DNA from: Eledone cirrhosa
Taxonomy: Eukaryota
DNA length: 64,000 nucleotides
Reading direction: 5' to 3'
Assembly (NCBI GenBank): GCA_964016885.1
Contig: OZ024741.1
Coordinates: forward strand, 291,710,001-291,774,000
In this document: positions 20,290-53,858 of the stretch, in pieces
Position numbering within the stretch: position 1 is the first letter of the stretch
Layout: the number at the start of each line of letters is the position of its first letter
Notes under the pieces: generated by a model
What the model was told of the DNA's origin: nothing
Databases searched by the model: none
Seen by the model: only the letters and a program-made list of their open reading frames with translations
Position numbers and translations under genes: made by a program

Positions 20290-21063
20290 GTTGAACAAAA
20301 AGGTGACGTGGTTGCCTTAACACCGTACGGCATAAATTCAGGCAGTCAGTTTGTTTACAAACGGACAAAGCGGGCGTTATAAAAAGCGTCCGCTAAACTG
20401 ATACGTACATATATGTATGTGTACCTATATATATATATATATATATATATATATATATATATATATATATATATATGCATGCTACTGTACGTCTGTATAC
20501 ATATATGTATGTACGTATACATACATATTTACATTTAAGTAAGTGCCGTACTAAGAGTGAGAAATGAAATTTCGTTTTCATTTTATTACAACTTATCGTT
20601 TTCGGTGCGCCTGGCCGACTGAACTCACTCGATATGCAAATTAGGCTGCTCAGCCGTTAATTTTCATAAGGAAAGTATATACTTTCGAACGTTCAACCAT
20701 CTGGCAGCAGGATATACGGTGCTGATGATAGCTAACAAGCTTGAAACTAGTACATCGTTCCTGTGTCAGTGTTGAACAAAAAGGTGACGTGGTTGCCTTA
20801 ACACCGTACGGCATAAATTCAGGCTGTCAGTTTGTTTACAAACGGACAAAGCGGGCGTTATAATAAGCGTCCGCTAAACTGATACGTACATATATGTATG
20901 TGTACCTGTATGTATATATATATATATATATATATATATATATATATGCATGCTGCTGTACGTCTGTATACATATATGTATGTACGTATACATACATACT
21001 TACATTTAAGTAAGTGCCGTACTAAGAGTGAGAAATGAAATTTCGTTTTCATTTTATTACAAC
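20290..21063 (+). mobile_element. Retrozyme-like ~480-bp tandem repeat (1.6 units) with HHR
   Basis: GTTGAACAAAAAGG at 20290 and 20771 (period 481). Non-coding, carries an HHR at 20717-20757, and has (TA)n flanks. Confidence 0.75.
20717..20757 (+). ncRNA. Minimal type-I hammerhead ribozyme
   Basis: cggtg-CTGATGA-tAGC taacaa GCTt-GAAA-CTAG-TA-catcg. Confidence 0.85.
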
Positions 21064-21180
21064 CTATATATATCTATACATGTATATATATATATATATA
21101 TATATATATATATATATATATATATATATATATCAATGACATTAATAAATGGAAACTATATTTATAAAACCATATTTATT

Positions 21181-21233
21181 CTATTATATATATTTCGAGG
21201 GTACCAAAAGTTTGGTACGCTCTCATCAGATAA
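21181..21233 (-). ncRNA. Minimal type-I hammerhead in a solo pLTR-like fragment (~21133-21300)
   Basis: ttat-CTGATGA-GAGcGTACCAAA c TTTTGGTACcCTC-GAAA-TATATA-TA-atag. Confidence 0.85.
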
Positions 21234-21394
21234 ATACAAAGTTTGTTTTATAAATATTAACATATCCAGGAAGGAGATCTTAACGGTTCAAGTTTTCCCT
21301 ATATATATATATATATATATATATATATATATATATATATAGAGAGAGAGAGAGAGAGAGAGAGATGTAGATATATATATATATATATAGATAT

Positions 21395-21698
21395 AAATAA
21401 ATATACACGGGTGTGTATGATTGTGTATAGAAGATTATAATAATAAAGGAATTCCAACTTTGTCTGATTTACTCGTTTTATTTACAATCCTTTAAAATTA
21501 TAATTATTTCTACTTTTGGCACAAGGCCAGCAATTACGTAGTGCATTACTGGTACTTTATTTTATCCTTTAAAATTATAATGATATTATAATGAAATAGT
21601 ATGGTAGAATATTAAATGTTAAGTGTTAATTGAACAAGTATTTTCATGCTTTCGCAATCTTCAGGTTCATATTCAGTGGTGACAGTCAAGTTTTCAAT
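21395..21698 (-). mobile_element. HHR-bearing pLTR-like element (same family as 45948 and 52003), interrupted by a SINE tail
   Basis: Shares GGAATTCCAACTTTGTCTGATTTACTCG. HHR at 21631-21669 on the minus strand. SINE-A tail 21505-21563 lies between 18-bp direct repeats ATCCTTTAAAATTATAAT (21487-21504, 21564-21581). Confidence 0.8.
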
Positions 21699-21730
21699 AT
21701 ATATATATATATATAGAGAGAGAGAGAGAG

Positions 21731-21965
21731 AGGTCCTTTCGAAATATTCCTCCTAATATAACATGGATCGGTTTCGTTTTTACTTACAATTCCTGTTTCG
21801 TTTGAATAGGACGAATTTTTTTCCCATTTACTCCTGAATCGTTTGATGTCCCTGATGGTTATTGGTGGCAGCTTATAGATGGCTAATTTTTCCAGAAATC
21901 CATCGACGGATGATATGAAACATCTTCTTATGATCAACACATTGCATGTTTAATCCCATCTTTCA
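21731..21965 (-). pseudogene. Old R4/Dong-type RT fragment (upstream part)
   Basis: VDHKKMFH / FLEKLAIYKLPP...SKW...IRRNISKG aligns by eye with DYKKAFD...RRGIFQGD of this clade. Confidence 0.6.
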
Positions 21966-50010: not shown

Positions 50011-52002
50011 AAAAATTATAACAACAATTGCAGAGATTTTAAATCTTAAAATAATGACAGCGTGATCACGTAGCAATCTAAAAAATAAGGTAATTATTCA
50101 TATAAAATAATTGTTTCTAAAAATAATGAAAGAAGAAAATAATAAAAAAATTAAAATCACTATCCCACAATGCACCTTGACATCCGGTTACATCATTTTA
50201 GTATTGCGTAAGAAAAAAAAACATTTACAAAAAAGGACTTTTTCCCTTTATTAGAAAAGCGATCAGCAGCAACCAGAAAAACTAAAAGACTCCCCCTCCC
50301 CTCCCCAACCCAAATTCCAAACAATAGATGCAGAACACAAAACCAAATAAACAGAAAACAAAAACAAGAAAAGGAAGTGAAGATTATACTGCATGAACTA
50401 ATGTAATATAGGAAAATGCATGGTAGGCATTGTTGCGTGGTTGAAGCGTTCTCTATTGCAACCACGTATTTCTGGGTTCAGTCCCGCATCGAGTTAAATG
50501 CCTTGCATTGTCAGAGAAATTAATTTGGTAAATAGAAACTGCAGAAGTGCGTCCCATGTTTGTATATATATATTATAATGTCAGGTTACTCTTGATTGCT
50601 ACTGGTAACATCTAAACCAGTACAAGCTGTTGCATGGTCGGGTCGTCGGCGACTAAACTGGCAACCCCACCAAGTTTACTTGGTGAGGAGGGTGATTTTG
50701 GACACCCTGTACGACAAAAAACAAAACCTGACAAAGGGCGGAAGAACTGATAAGAGTCAACAGCCATCCAAAAATGTGTAAATATGTATATACACATGTA
50801 CATATGTATGTGTATATACGTGTCAGGGGTGTCAGGGAGGGGCATGTACCTCTTTAGGAGGAGGAGGGACTAGCCATGCCCTTTTCAAGACAGCTCCTCC
50901 TGCTTTGGGTCCCACCTGACACTCAGCTCTCACCCGTGGCCCCAAGAAGCTGTGGCATGCGACAGCGGCCACACCCCGGTAAACCGCCTTGGCTGGCGGC
51001 CCGAACCAAGTTGAGGGTAGCCGGACGTGTCTGACCCCCCCCCCCCCCCCCCGGTGAGTTAGATAGAGGATGCCTACCCCTGCATGCGAAGACTGGACCC
51101 GGCGGAGTGAGTGGATGAGGACAACAACGTCCCAACGGTCACGAAGGCGGCGACAGCAAGCGGTGTGGAGCGCTAGGGCACGGCAAGGTACTACAGACAA
51201 CGTGGCCATCCACTGCAGCCAAGGAAGTCCCTGGTCGTGACGGACTCCGTAACACCGGATTCTGGCTTTTGCGGCCGAGTGAGTGGGACCGTCACTGTGC
51301 ACAGGCCCTCCCACTATAAACCTTTCCCGCACAGGTTTCTTCTTTAGCGTGCACTCCCAAAGCCCTGCAGCGATGGGCGAGAGGCGGAAATAACAGGTGG
51401 AGGTAACCTCTAGGAGTTGCCAGTCTCAAACCCACATGTGGGCGGCCTGGATGCGCAAGTCGTTCTCCTCCTGACCCTGGGATGACAGAGGAGGTCAGGC
51501 GTTCCAGCGCCTGTGAAAGGAAGAGAAAGGCATCAACAGCTGCCCCAAGCGACTCCGGTCTCTTCCCTTGCCTCCACTGTCCCCGGACCTGCAAGTCAAC
51601 GATCGGCCTCCACAGCCACCTTCGTGCCCACGGCAAACGGGAACTAAAATAAAGATGTCATTATCGTTTACGATGGACAACCAAGATATTTATATATATA
51701 TATATATATATATATATAAGTATGTATGTATGTATACGTACATACATATATGTATACATACGTACAGTAGTATGTATATATATACATACATGCACACATA
51801 TATATATGCACGTATCGGTTTACCGAACGTTTATTATAATGGTCGGTTTGTTTGTATACATATATGTATGTACGTATACGTACATACATACTTACATTTA
51901 AGTAAGTACCGTACTAAGAGGGAGAAATGAAATTTCGTTTCATTCTATTCCATTTATATATATATATATATATATATATATATATATATATATATATATA
52001 TA

Positions 52003-52385
52003 TTAATAAGAGGAATTCCAACTTTGTCTGATTTACTCGTTTTATTTACAATCCTTTAAAATTTATAATGGTATTATAATGAAATAGTATAATAGAATAT
52101 TAAATTCTAAGTGTTAAATGAACAAGTACTTTCATGTTTTCGCAATCTTCAGATTCATAATATGTGGTGACAGTCAAGTTTGCAATTTTCAACTGTGAAC
52201 CTGAAGATTGCGAAAGCATGAAAGTACTTGTTCAATTAACACTTAGAATTTAATATTCTATCATACTATTTCATTATAATACCATTATAAATTTTAAAGG
52301 ATTGTAAATAAAACGAGTAAATCAGACAAAGTTGGAATTCCTCTTATTAATATAATCTTCTATACACAATCATACACACCCGTAT
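52003..52385. mobile_element. Fold-back element with two HHRs
   Basis: Arms 52003-52157 and 52196-52350. Plus HHR 52196-52234 tgaac-CTGAAGA-tTGC gaaa GCAt-GAAA-GTAC-TT-gttca, with a mirror at 52119-52157. Confidence 0.88.
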
Positions 52386-52440
52386 ATATTTATCTATCTA
52401 TCTATCTATCTATATATATATATATATATATATATATATA

Positions 52441-52958
52441 CAAACATAGGGCAGCTTTCAACAAGGACAAGGAAGTATTAACATCAACACGAGTTTCCTA
52501 TCATTTGAGACTAAGATTGTTGATACTTACATCCTACCAGTTGTGTTTTATGATCTTGACTGTGTAAATTGGACGACAAAGTCACATCAGAAGTTCTCTA
52601 CATTACAGAACCACATCATGAGACTTATGACTGGCATGCGGCTCAGCGACCATATCTGTATCAGTGATCTGCTCAACGTTACCGAACTTAGACCAATTAC
52701 ATCAATTGTCAAGTCAAGAGTACTCAAACTATACGGTCATATAAATAGATCAACTCGTAGTGTGAGTAGGTTATGCCTGGAAGGGAGGTTGGCTGGTAAG
52801 AGAAATAGAGGCATTCTCAAACGATAGCTTGACAATATCATCTTATGGATTAGACTTGATCTTTGTTCTTTGAACTCTGCTGCTGGTGATCGAACTTTGT
52901 GGAGAGAGATATCACATGTTTATACGCAGTCTGCAACTGGCGGAGTTTAGCATCAAAG
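52441..52958 (+). pseudogene. 3' fragment of RTE-type LINE
   Basis: YILPVVFYDLDCVNW...RLSDHI...LKLYGHINR...LCLEGRLAGKRNRG. Confidence 0.75.
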
Positions 52959-53196
52959 TAATATATATATATACACACATACACACACACACGCACACAC
53001 ACACACACACACACACACACACACACACACACACACACACACACACACACACACACACACACACACACACACACACACACACACACACACACACACACAC
53101 ACACACACACACACACACACACACACACACACACACACACACACACATATATGTATATATATATATATATATATATAGATATATATAGATATATGG

Positions 53197-53858
53197 AAAA
53201 AAATAAAACGAAATTTCATTTCTCACTCTTAGTACGGCTGATACTTAAATATAAGTATGTATACGTACATACATATATGTACGTATGGGTTTACCGAACA
53301 TTTATTATAATGTTCGGTTTGTTTGCAAACAAACAGTCCGAATTAAGCCGTACAGTGTTCGGCAACCATCGTTGCCCTTTTGTTCAACACTGACAAAGGA
53401 ACGATGAACTTGTTTCAAGCTCATTAGCTATCGTCAGCATCGTATGAGAAATTAAATTTCGTTTCATTTTTTTCCATTTATCGTCTTCGGTACGCCCGGG
53501 CGACTAACTCATTCAAGTTGCAAATTAGGCTGCTCAGCCGTTAATATGCATAAGGAAAGTATATACTTTCAAACGTTCAATCATCTGACAGGAAGGTATA
53601 TGATGCTGACGATAGCTAATAAACTTGAAACTAGTTCATCGTTCCTTTGTCAGTGTTGAACAAATGGGCACAATGGTTGCCGAACACTGTACGGCTTAAT
53701 TCGGGCTGTTTGTTTACAAACAAACCGAACAATAAAATAAATGTTCGGTAAACCCATACGTACATATATATATATGTTTGCATGTATGTATATATATATA
53801 TACATACTACTGTACGTCTGTATACATATATGTCTGTACGTATACATACTTATATTTA
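53197..53858. mobile_element. Retrozyme-like family, inverted pair of units
   Basis: Minus unit 53197-53444 (HHR 53402-53442) and plus unit 53445-53858 (HHR 53601-53641, CTGACGA...GAAA-CTAG-TT). Confidence 0.8.

Follow-up and report, generated by a model that had tools for sequence, protein, structure and literature searches.

A non-coding hammerhead ribozyme repeat family of Eledone cirrhosa with the insertion footprint of Penelope-like elements

Short ribozyme-bearing repeats that encode no protein raise the question of which enzyme inserts them and which form of their RNA is copied. We address this question for a repeat family with a hammerhead ribozyme (HHR) in a stretch of 64,000 nt from the Eledone cirrhosa genome (contig OZ024741.1, positions 291,710,001 to 291,774,000; hereafter "the window", with positions counted from its first letter). 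Family A denotes this HHR repeat family, family X a sister family, and family B a Penelope-like element (PLE). Insertions of family A have the same footprint as those of a protein-coding PLE of this genome, which makes copying by such an enzyme likely, and we are confident that the family is mobilized non-autonomously by PLEs. The fuller reading, to which we assign a probability of roughly two in three, is that family A is a non-autonomous retrozyme that would be copied by a Neptune-type PLE reverse transcriptase (RT)/GIY-YIG enzyme from a circular unit-length RNA. As judged from its predicted features, family A joins the metazoan retrozymes without long terminal repeats (non-LTR retrozymes); retrozymes, their circles and a proposed link to PLEs were already known.

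The repeat at 20290 has the period of 481 nt and the head-to-tail, HHR-bearing unit that an original prediction from this stretch had described, with 98 of its first 100 bases matching those one period on (20290/20771). Also borne out at the DNA level was the claim of a non-coding tandem HHR family with copies longer than the unit: family A is organized in short tandems, from single units through dimers to multimers of up to 6-7 units, and a natural trimer contained no open reading frame (ORF) of >70 codons from ATG. Natural internal units measured 422-557 nt (108 counted, overlapping loci kept in), and the GC content of the family A and X units (0.35-0.37) is under the bound of 45-50% for metazoan non-LTR retrozymes. 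A 30-nt pattern of the family A core had 26,325 exact matches across the 3.0-Gb genome, which is rich in microsatellites, whereas the reversed-pattern control had none; the motif is therefore not a chance occurrence. The best-scoring full-length matches genome-wide were 97-100% identical, which indicates that part of the family is young. No copy of family A or X was present in 14 neighbouring or arbitrary 10-kb stretches, and the window is thus denser in family A than average. At the gathering score Rfam had no match in the window; below it, a weak Hammerhead_HH9 match covered 20704-20775 (21.2 bits, E 0.014) among 58 matches that were mostly chance. Among contigs from four of six sequencing runs, all of unrecorded kind, depth was very high in one run, against 0-4 contigs in the three runs from other organisms, a result uninformative on expression. 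A literature search, made without Repbase/Dfam, supplements and most subscription journals, found no published description of family A or of end pairing in retrozymes.

Fixed ends and inverted arms

Insertion anatomy was referred to a natural 467-nt family A unit (locus L112), in which the predicted ribozyme cut falls after position 159, a TA-rich hairpin occupies positions 288-406, and two insertion ends, End1 and End2, lie at about 406-411 and at 467. The two ends, separated by ~60 nt, follow the predicted cut by about 250 and 310 nt rather than coinciding with it. The common copy end followed by (TA)n that had been proposed earlier is thus real as a fixed end, but it is not the only one, as two fixed ends exist. 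That the end sequence reads on internally into the next unit was correct, and it continues there into TATCGTTTTCGG. An end scan labelled 52 sites as read-through and 27 as ends, two of the latter being mutated read-throughs. In the young subfamily, End2 was followed by TA at 917 sites, compared with 1,071 sites at which this sequence continues into a further unit; End1 was followed by TA at 956 sites, with a pattern that also covers related subfamilies.

The pairing of these ends was assessed in 100 family A loci selected by exact end pattern, namely the 30 leading End2 matches on C1 together with 40 of those that follow, and the 30 leading End1 matches. At the 70 End2-selected loci, the outer end of the inverted arm was End1 in 32 cases, End2 in 1, in the TA hairpin in 7 and elsewhere in 3, while the arm was cut off in 6 and not found in 21. 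The corresponding counts for the 30 End1-selected loci were End2 18, End1 0, elsewhere 1, cut off 6 and no arm 5. In total, 50 inverted arms ended at the site not used by the selected arm, 1 at the same site, 7 in the TA hairpin and 4 elsewhere; 12 were cut off, and at 26 of the 100 loci no inverted arm was detected. The sole same-end locus is a chaining error and is not followed by TA. Counting once the two insertions that occurred in both sets, 48 of 49 distinct two-arm family A insertions had one of each end, and the same was true of family X in all 23 loci with both ends called (25 examined). Family A loci showed variable 5' truncation, with scattered inner ends and fixed 3' ends. Target duplications of 9 and 10 bp were found in 2 of 13 two-arm insertions, both of family X, and the other 11 sit in pure TA; the (TA)n target is common to the ends of families A, X and B.

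Inverted arms, a one-sided tail and a bias toward microsatellites are stated hallmarks of PLEs (PMC8557442). In the anole, the purified PLE protein cleaves both strands and extends them, with two internal RNA start sites that define the tail (PMC11167929). The inverted arms together with the second fixed end are the strongest evidence for PLE enzymes. Reverse transcription by such enzymes from a circular or multimeric RNA had been part of the original prediction; the PLE hallmarks of the insertions support it, although the prediction had missed the inverted arms and the second end. The arm-chaining script misassigned a few loci (e.g. L131, L156, L194 and L206). The exception seen to the pairing is the A/X chimera L215 (G000:C1:183.60 Mb), which has End2 at both ends. 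Within a short sequence common to both families, the A arm of L215 gives way to an X array; this chimera hints that the two families use one enzyme.

It is extremely unlikely that the unit is a DNA-level repeat, such as a minisatellite, a miniature inverted-repeat transposable element or a Helitron-like element, with a hammerhead-like motif that arose by chance. The inverted arms do look like terminal inverted repeats, hairpins abound in the unit and some arrays expand locally. Such a repeat would, however, not account for fixed 3' ends combined with scattered 5' ends, for two arms that end at different sites, for an HHR core kept with compensatory stem changes across families that are 63% identical, or for a footprint like that of an RT-encoding PLE.

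Mapping of one unit onto the window shows that each of its five insertions consists of two arms that meet head-to-head within (TA)n, one on the minus and one on the plus strand:

20222..20292, minus strand: insertion 1, short inverted arm; outer end within the internal TA-rich hairpin, blending into the flanking (TA)n
20290..21064, plus strand: insertion 1, main arm of 1.6 head-to-tail units; unit junction at 20593/20594; stops at End2, then (TA)n
20716..20758, plus strand: type I hammerhead motif predicted to cut after 20752 (GUA); helix III is palindromic (ACUAGU), and helix II has a U.U at its base
42310..42420, minus strand: insertion 2, inverted arm; outer end is End1
42438..42640, plus strand: insertion 2, plus arm without HHR; outer end is End2
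46330..46705, minus strand: insertion 3, inverted arm; outer end is End1; HHR at 46530-46572
46706..47503, plus strand: insertion 3, plus arm of rearranged partial units and one full unit; outer end is End2
47200-47242, plus strand: HHR of the insertion 3 plus arm, with a degenerate core (CTGATCA)
51718..51851, minus strand: insertion 4, inverted arm; outer end is End1
51850..51957, plus strand: insertion 4, plus arm; outer end is End2
53194..53445, minus strand: insertion 5, inverted arm; outer end is End2; HHR at 53401-53443
53445..53860, plus strand: insertion 5, plus arm; outer end is End1; HHR at 53600-53642

Four of the five insertions have one of each end, and insertion 1 (20222) begins in the TA hairpin instead. 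The fragments announced at 42310 and 51718 are both present. The repeat is likewise present at 46330 and 53197, not as plain tandems but in each case as a minus-strand arm head-to-head with a plus-strand arm. A motif scan of the window found five hammerhead sites, three on the plus and two on the minus strand, and the reported stem I change from G.U to A-U was recovered on the minus strand at 53401-53443.

A further family, Y, lies beside insertion 1 (21135-21250, minus strand) and ends in its TA run; it has an HHR-like motif with a long helix II and a palindromic AUAUAU helix III. A 15-bp inverted flank copy at 20190-20204 was considered as part of insertion 1 and rejected, as it belongs to the end of this neighbouring family. 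Another canonical-looking type I HHR at 4275-4321 (minus strand) represents an additional family, with similar motifs in L067 and L068. The segments 51300-51660 and 52440-52960 contain fragments that we take to resemble pieces of long interspersed nuclear elements.

Penelope-like enzymes in the genome

A profile search with PF01541 (GIY-YIG) returned 10,596 candidate places, of which 150 were scored and 50 loci examined. These 50 loci fall into about seven RT+GIY-YIG families; wherever an end could be seen, the copies ran into (TA)n. Family B is intact and encodes RT and GIY-YIG with a CX4CxxC linker, the mark of Neptune/Nematis PLEs (PMC8557442). An open frame of about 775 aa, with 98-99% identity, is present in most of its 69 scored matches, and full copies with 4.2-kb tandems occur. 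Its pseudo-long terminal repeat (pLTR) carries an HHR with U.U and a palindromic helix III, as in family A, and its two-arm copies have one short and one long end, as judged by eye.

The original prediction had itself weighed the possibility that the unit is simply a pLTR that an autonomous PLE left behind, here as single copies or partial tandems. The unit does carry all the marks of a pLTR, namely the HHR, the two ends and the inverted arm; family B in the same window is such a case, and the sample comprises 50 examined loci out of 150 scored matches and 10,596 candidates. Within this sample of 80 PLE loci, however, family A or X formed the pLTR of an ORF in 0 of 50 GIY-YIG and 0 of 30 family B loci, so that no copy attached to an RT ORF was seen. 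The unit junctions moreover run into the same unit, and with 6-7 units in family A and 31 in family X the arrays go beyond the partial tandems of PLEs. We therefore consider this explanation very unlikely for the present-day unit, although descent of the unit from an ancestral pLTR is likely. At five PLE loci with family A or X nearby, the two were separate insertions.

Among the 80 loci, neither family B nor any other of the about seven RT+GIY-YIG families had homology to family A or X. This lack of homology counts against the fuller reading; only a loose, U-rich resemblance between the ends of A/X and those of PLEs was seen by eye. Family B was considered as the sequence partner of family A and rejected, as the two share no homology.

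Several other PLE-related features were observed. In the window, family B is represented by pLTR-only insertions at 21400-21700, 45950-46240 and 52003-52383, two of them two-armed, with HHR cores at 21630-21670, 46063-46103 and 52118-52158 on the minus strand and at 52195-52235 on the plus strand. Long inverted repeats of 791 and 829 nt (98-99%) surround open frames of 415 and 382 codons at 7488-9627 and 13866-17535; the 3' sequence of the former resembles by eye a PLE family (L072/L075), and both may be inverted PLE insertions. In other PLE families, atypical HHR-like remnants lie downstream of the ORF (L061, L072, L079 and L080), with an ACCGGT palindrome about 110-150 nt before the end.

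Ribozyme structure and template RNA

In 206 HHR contexts, a sample weighted to young copies, helix I positions 1-6 were paired in 98-99%, with position 3 alternating between GU, UG, AU and UA. Across 11 representatives with <90% mutual identity, 9 of 23 pairs of helix II and the extended helix I changed on both sides, which was reached in 0 of 500 shuffles, and the HHR/extended-stem structure paired 94.5% of cells compared with 35-49% for slid controls. Lineage-shared changes in the HHR were fewer than expected by length (4 vs 8.9), and none hit invariant core bases; private changes, confined to single insertions, were at expectation (24 vs 25). Circular folds of A and X contain the same hairpin series, with z between -6 and -11 against 40 dinucleotide shuffles; in the degenerate window copy at 47071 the ribozyme did not form in the circular fold. 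An internal loop interrupts helix I after 6 bp, and its predicted extension, over about 20691-20777 for the motif at 20716..20758, would pair both ends of the cut-to-cut monomer, as a subsequent ligation would require. The palindrome ACUAGU forms helix III, a type reported to need dimers for cleavage (PMC4209133).

The unit also contains the conserved ATGCAAAT. A small nuclear RNA (snRNA)-type promoter was nevertheless rejected: the octamer was present in 0 of 5 U2 and 0 of 5 U1 upstream regions, unit alignments to U2 promoters were no better than shuffles, and one young X haplotype has lost the octamer. The idea reportedly goes back to newt satellite 2.

Family X was found beside A copies. 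Its 467-nt unit is 63% identical to that of A, with 9,311 HHR cores and a canonical G10.1-C11.1 ribozyme, and its top full-length matches are all 100% identical. An end-motif scan did not find it in the window; it occurs, for example, at L156:380-846 (G000:C1:96.10 Mb) and at L259-L278. One very young X haplotype comprises 69 copies at 7 loci, and its five unlinked arrays have arms of 7+12, 17+8, 5+1, 8 and 8 copies. Of their complete units, 55 of 58 are identical and each of the other three has a one-base indel. Rolling-circle copying predicts such arms, which contain as many as 17 near-identical units and recur at five unlinked arrays.

The behaviour of arrays at the ribozyme site bears on the template as well. 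Of 111 passages through the cut site, 110 continued; the single stop compares with about 4.5 expected under uniform truncation, and only 1 of 144 inner ends lay near the cut. This run-through excludes the cleaved linear monomer as the usual template. Units within an insertion differed by 5.1 substitutions per 284 nt, compared with 15.1 between insertions. Among 31 A insertions with several units, 8 had insertion-private variants fixed in every unit, and in 5 of 13 such variants were fixed in both arms; in the family A locus L114 four identical units span both arms. In L356 (G000:C744), an array of one X haplotype is preceded by 1.2 units of another haplotype, and the interval of the switch (u168-236) begins exactly at the cut; this is a single event with a chance probability of about 15%, and a systematic search for haplotype switches, confounded by overlapping loci, gave one clean event. 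At L261:1139 an X arm ends at the predicted cut and faces a short inverted copy over a TA run; in this one instance a cleaved end may have served as primer.

The template might instead be a linear, uncleaved read-through transcript of tandem arrays of a PLE-mobilized element, with the HHR weak or acting elsewhere and unequal crossover lengthening the arrays. We regard this as doubtful, yet it deserves weight. The lack of a stop at the cut is just as compatible with it. In vitro, the anole PLE accepts unprocessed RNA and does not need HHR cleavage (PMC11167929), which makes a linear multimer a live alternative. The family A HHR looks weak, with U.U at 10.1-11.1 and a 2-bp helix III, and in vitro cleavage was found in only 1 of 9 Xenopus retrozymes (bioRxiv 2026.07.22.740005). 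Variants common to only some units occur in 7 of 31 arrays, and the period-3 array L111 and a 29-unit array look like later local duplication. A circular trimer was considered for L111 (spacings 504/475/488, twice) and rejected because the flanking partial units are off period; later local duplication or an assembly artefact is the simpler explanation of its spacing.

Other observations also weigh against a circle. The mean distance within arrays (5.1) is no lower than that to the nearest other insertion (4.4), the two arms of L011 are of different haplotypes, assembly polishing could homogenize young arrays, and the long clonal arrays belong to family X rather than to A. The covariation, in turn, is support and not a probability, because the structure was derived from the same alignment and the sequences are related.

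A linear template would, on the other hand, require a homogeneous master of at least 17 units, left uncut through 17 canonical-looking ribozymes, to yield the arms of 17 identical units. Private variants fixed over whole arrays and both arms need amplification from one monomer, and the L356 switch interval starting at the cut, with its chance of about 15% as one event, is a further point against linearity. Given mobilization by PLEs, we therefore favour a circular template over an uncleaved multimer with fair confidence, without regarding the matter as settled; much of this evidence comes from family X.

Proposed cycle and related systems

In the cycle that we propose, tandem copies would be transcribed, and the HHR would cut after GUA or GUU, probably as a dimer via its palindromic helix III. 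The long extension of helix I, predicted and covarying, may hold the monomer ends for ligation. A PLE endonuclease would then make a staggered cut in (TA)n, as suggested by the 9-10-bp duplications in both informative insertions, which belong to family X. Each 3'-OH would prime RT at an internal site, the sites for the two strands being different and separated by ~60 nt, in line with the observed end pairing, and RT would pass the ribozyme site, where no stop is apparent, and circle the template. Joining of the two cDNAs at their truncated ends would produce the inverted arms, and some older arrays would later have been lengthened by local duplication.

We give about even odds to the strongest form of this reading, a currently active circular-RNA retroelement in which one PLE complex cuts the (TA)n strands ~9-10 bp apart and primes one site per strand, with up to 17 rounds per arm of a ribozyme-made circle of ~470 nt. 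If it is true, PLE tails, inverted arms and tandems share one mechanism; the origin of tandem and inverted PLE insertions with a one-sided tail has been described as unresolved (PMC8557442). The same genome would also hold a minimal template and an intact candidate enzyme fit for reconstitution, and with a 470-nt non-coding template and intact PLE frames the circle-template model is testable in vitro. The earlier case for mobilization of retrozymes by PLEs consisted of co-occurrence and pLTR phylogeny. Families A and X, which together comprise >35,000 ribozyme cores in one genome, add junctions that can be counted: paired start sites, copying that continues past the ribozyme site, and clonal arms of several units in recent insertions.

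Like metazoan non-LTR retrozymes, including axolotl HHR_Amex2 (Cervera & de la Pena 2020, PMC7229834), family A has a type I HHR in short, low-GC (35-37%), non-coding tandems, a predicted circle that is highly self-paired, and co-occurring PLEs; the U.U at the base of helix II is shared with HHR_Amex2. Its unit is longer (420-500 nt vs ~170-400 nt). Fixed internal ends, inverted arms and end pairing, as seen in family A, do not appear in the retrozyme descriptions covered from PMC7229834 and PMC7761336, and the latter states that retrozyme repeats show no motif pointing to a helper. The retrozymes of Li, Clavereau and Pollet (bioRxiv 10.64898/2026.07.22.740005) are similarly non-autonomous partners of PLEs, and the family A unit falls within their range of 51-972 bp. 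There the link is by co-occurrence and pLTR homology, mainly in vertebrates (Xenopus), whereas here it is by insertion anatomy, with no pLTR homologue found.

Non-autonomous Chlamys elements such as MRC1 (PMC8557442) resemble family A as non-coding PLE passengers with pLTRs and multicopy head-to-tail insertions. In contrast to family A, for which no partner was found, they usually match an autonomous family at the 3' end, and their clade is mostly without canonical HHRs. With endonuclease-containing (EN+) PLEs of the Neptune/Nematis type (Craig et al. 2021, PMC8557442), family A shares 5' truncation, tandems, an inverted 5'-truncated arm, a tail at one end and a microsatellite target. With the Anolis Poseidon element PAc (Frangieh et al. 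2024, PMC11167929) it shares two internal RT starts downstream of the HHR cut, and its two arms correspond to the cleavage and extension of both target strands by PAc. Unlike EN+ PLEs and PAc, family A has no ORF, its tail is 55-70 nt rather than 30-40 nt, and its presumed starts fall about 250 and 310 nt past the cut. PAc in vitro showed no strand difference in start site, whereas in family A the pairing of one site per arm is near-strict.

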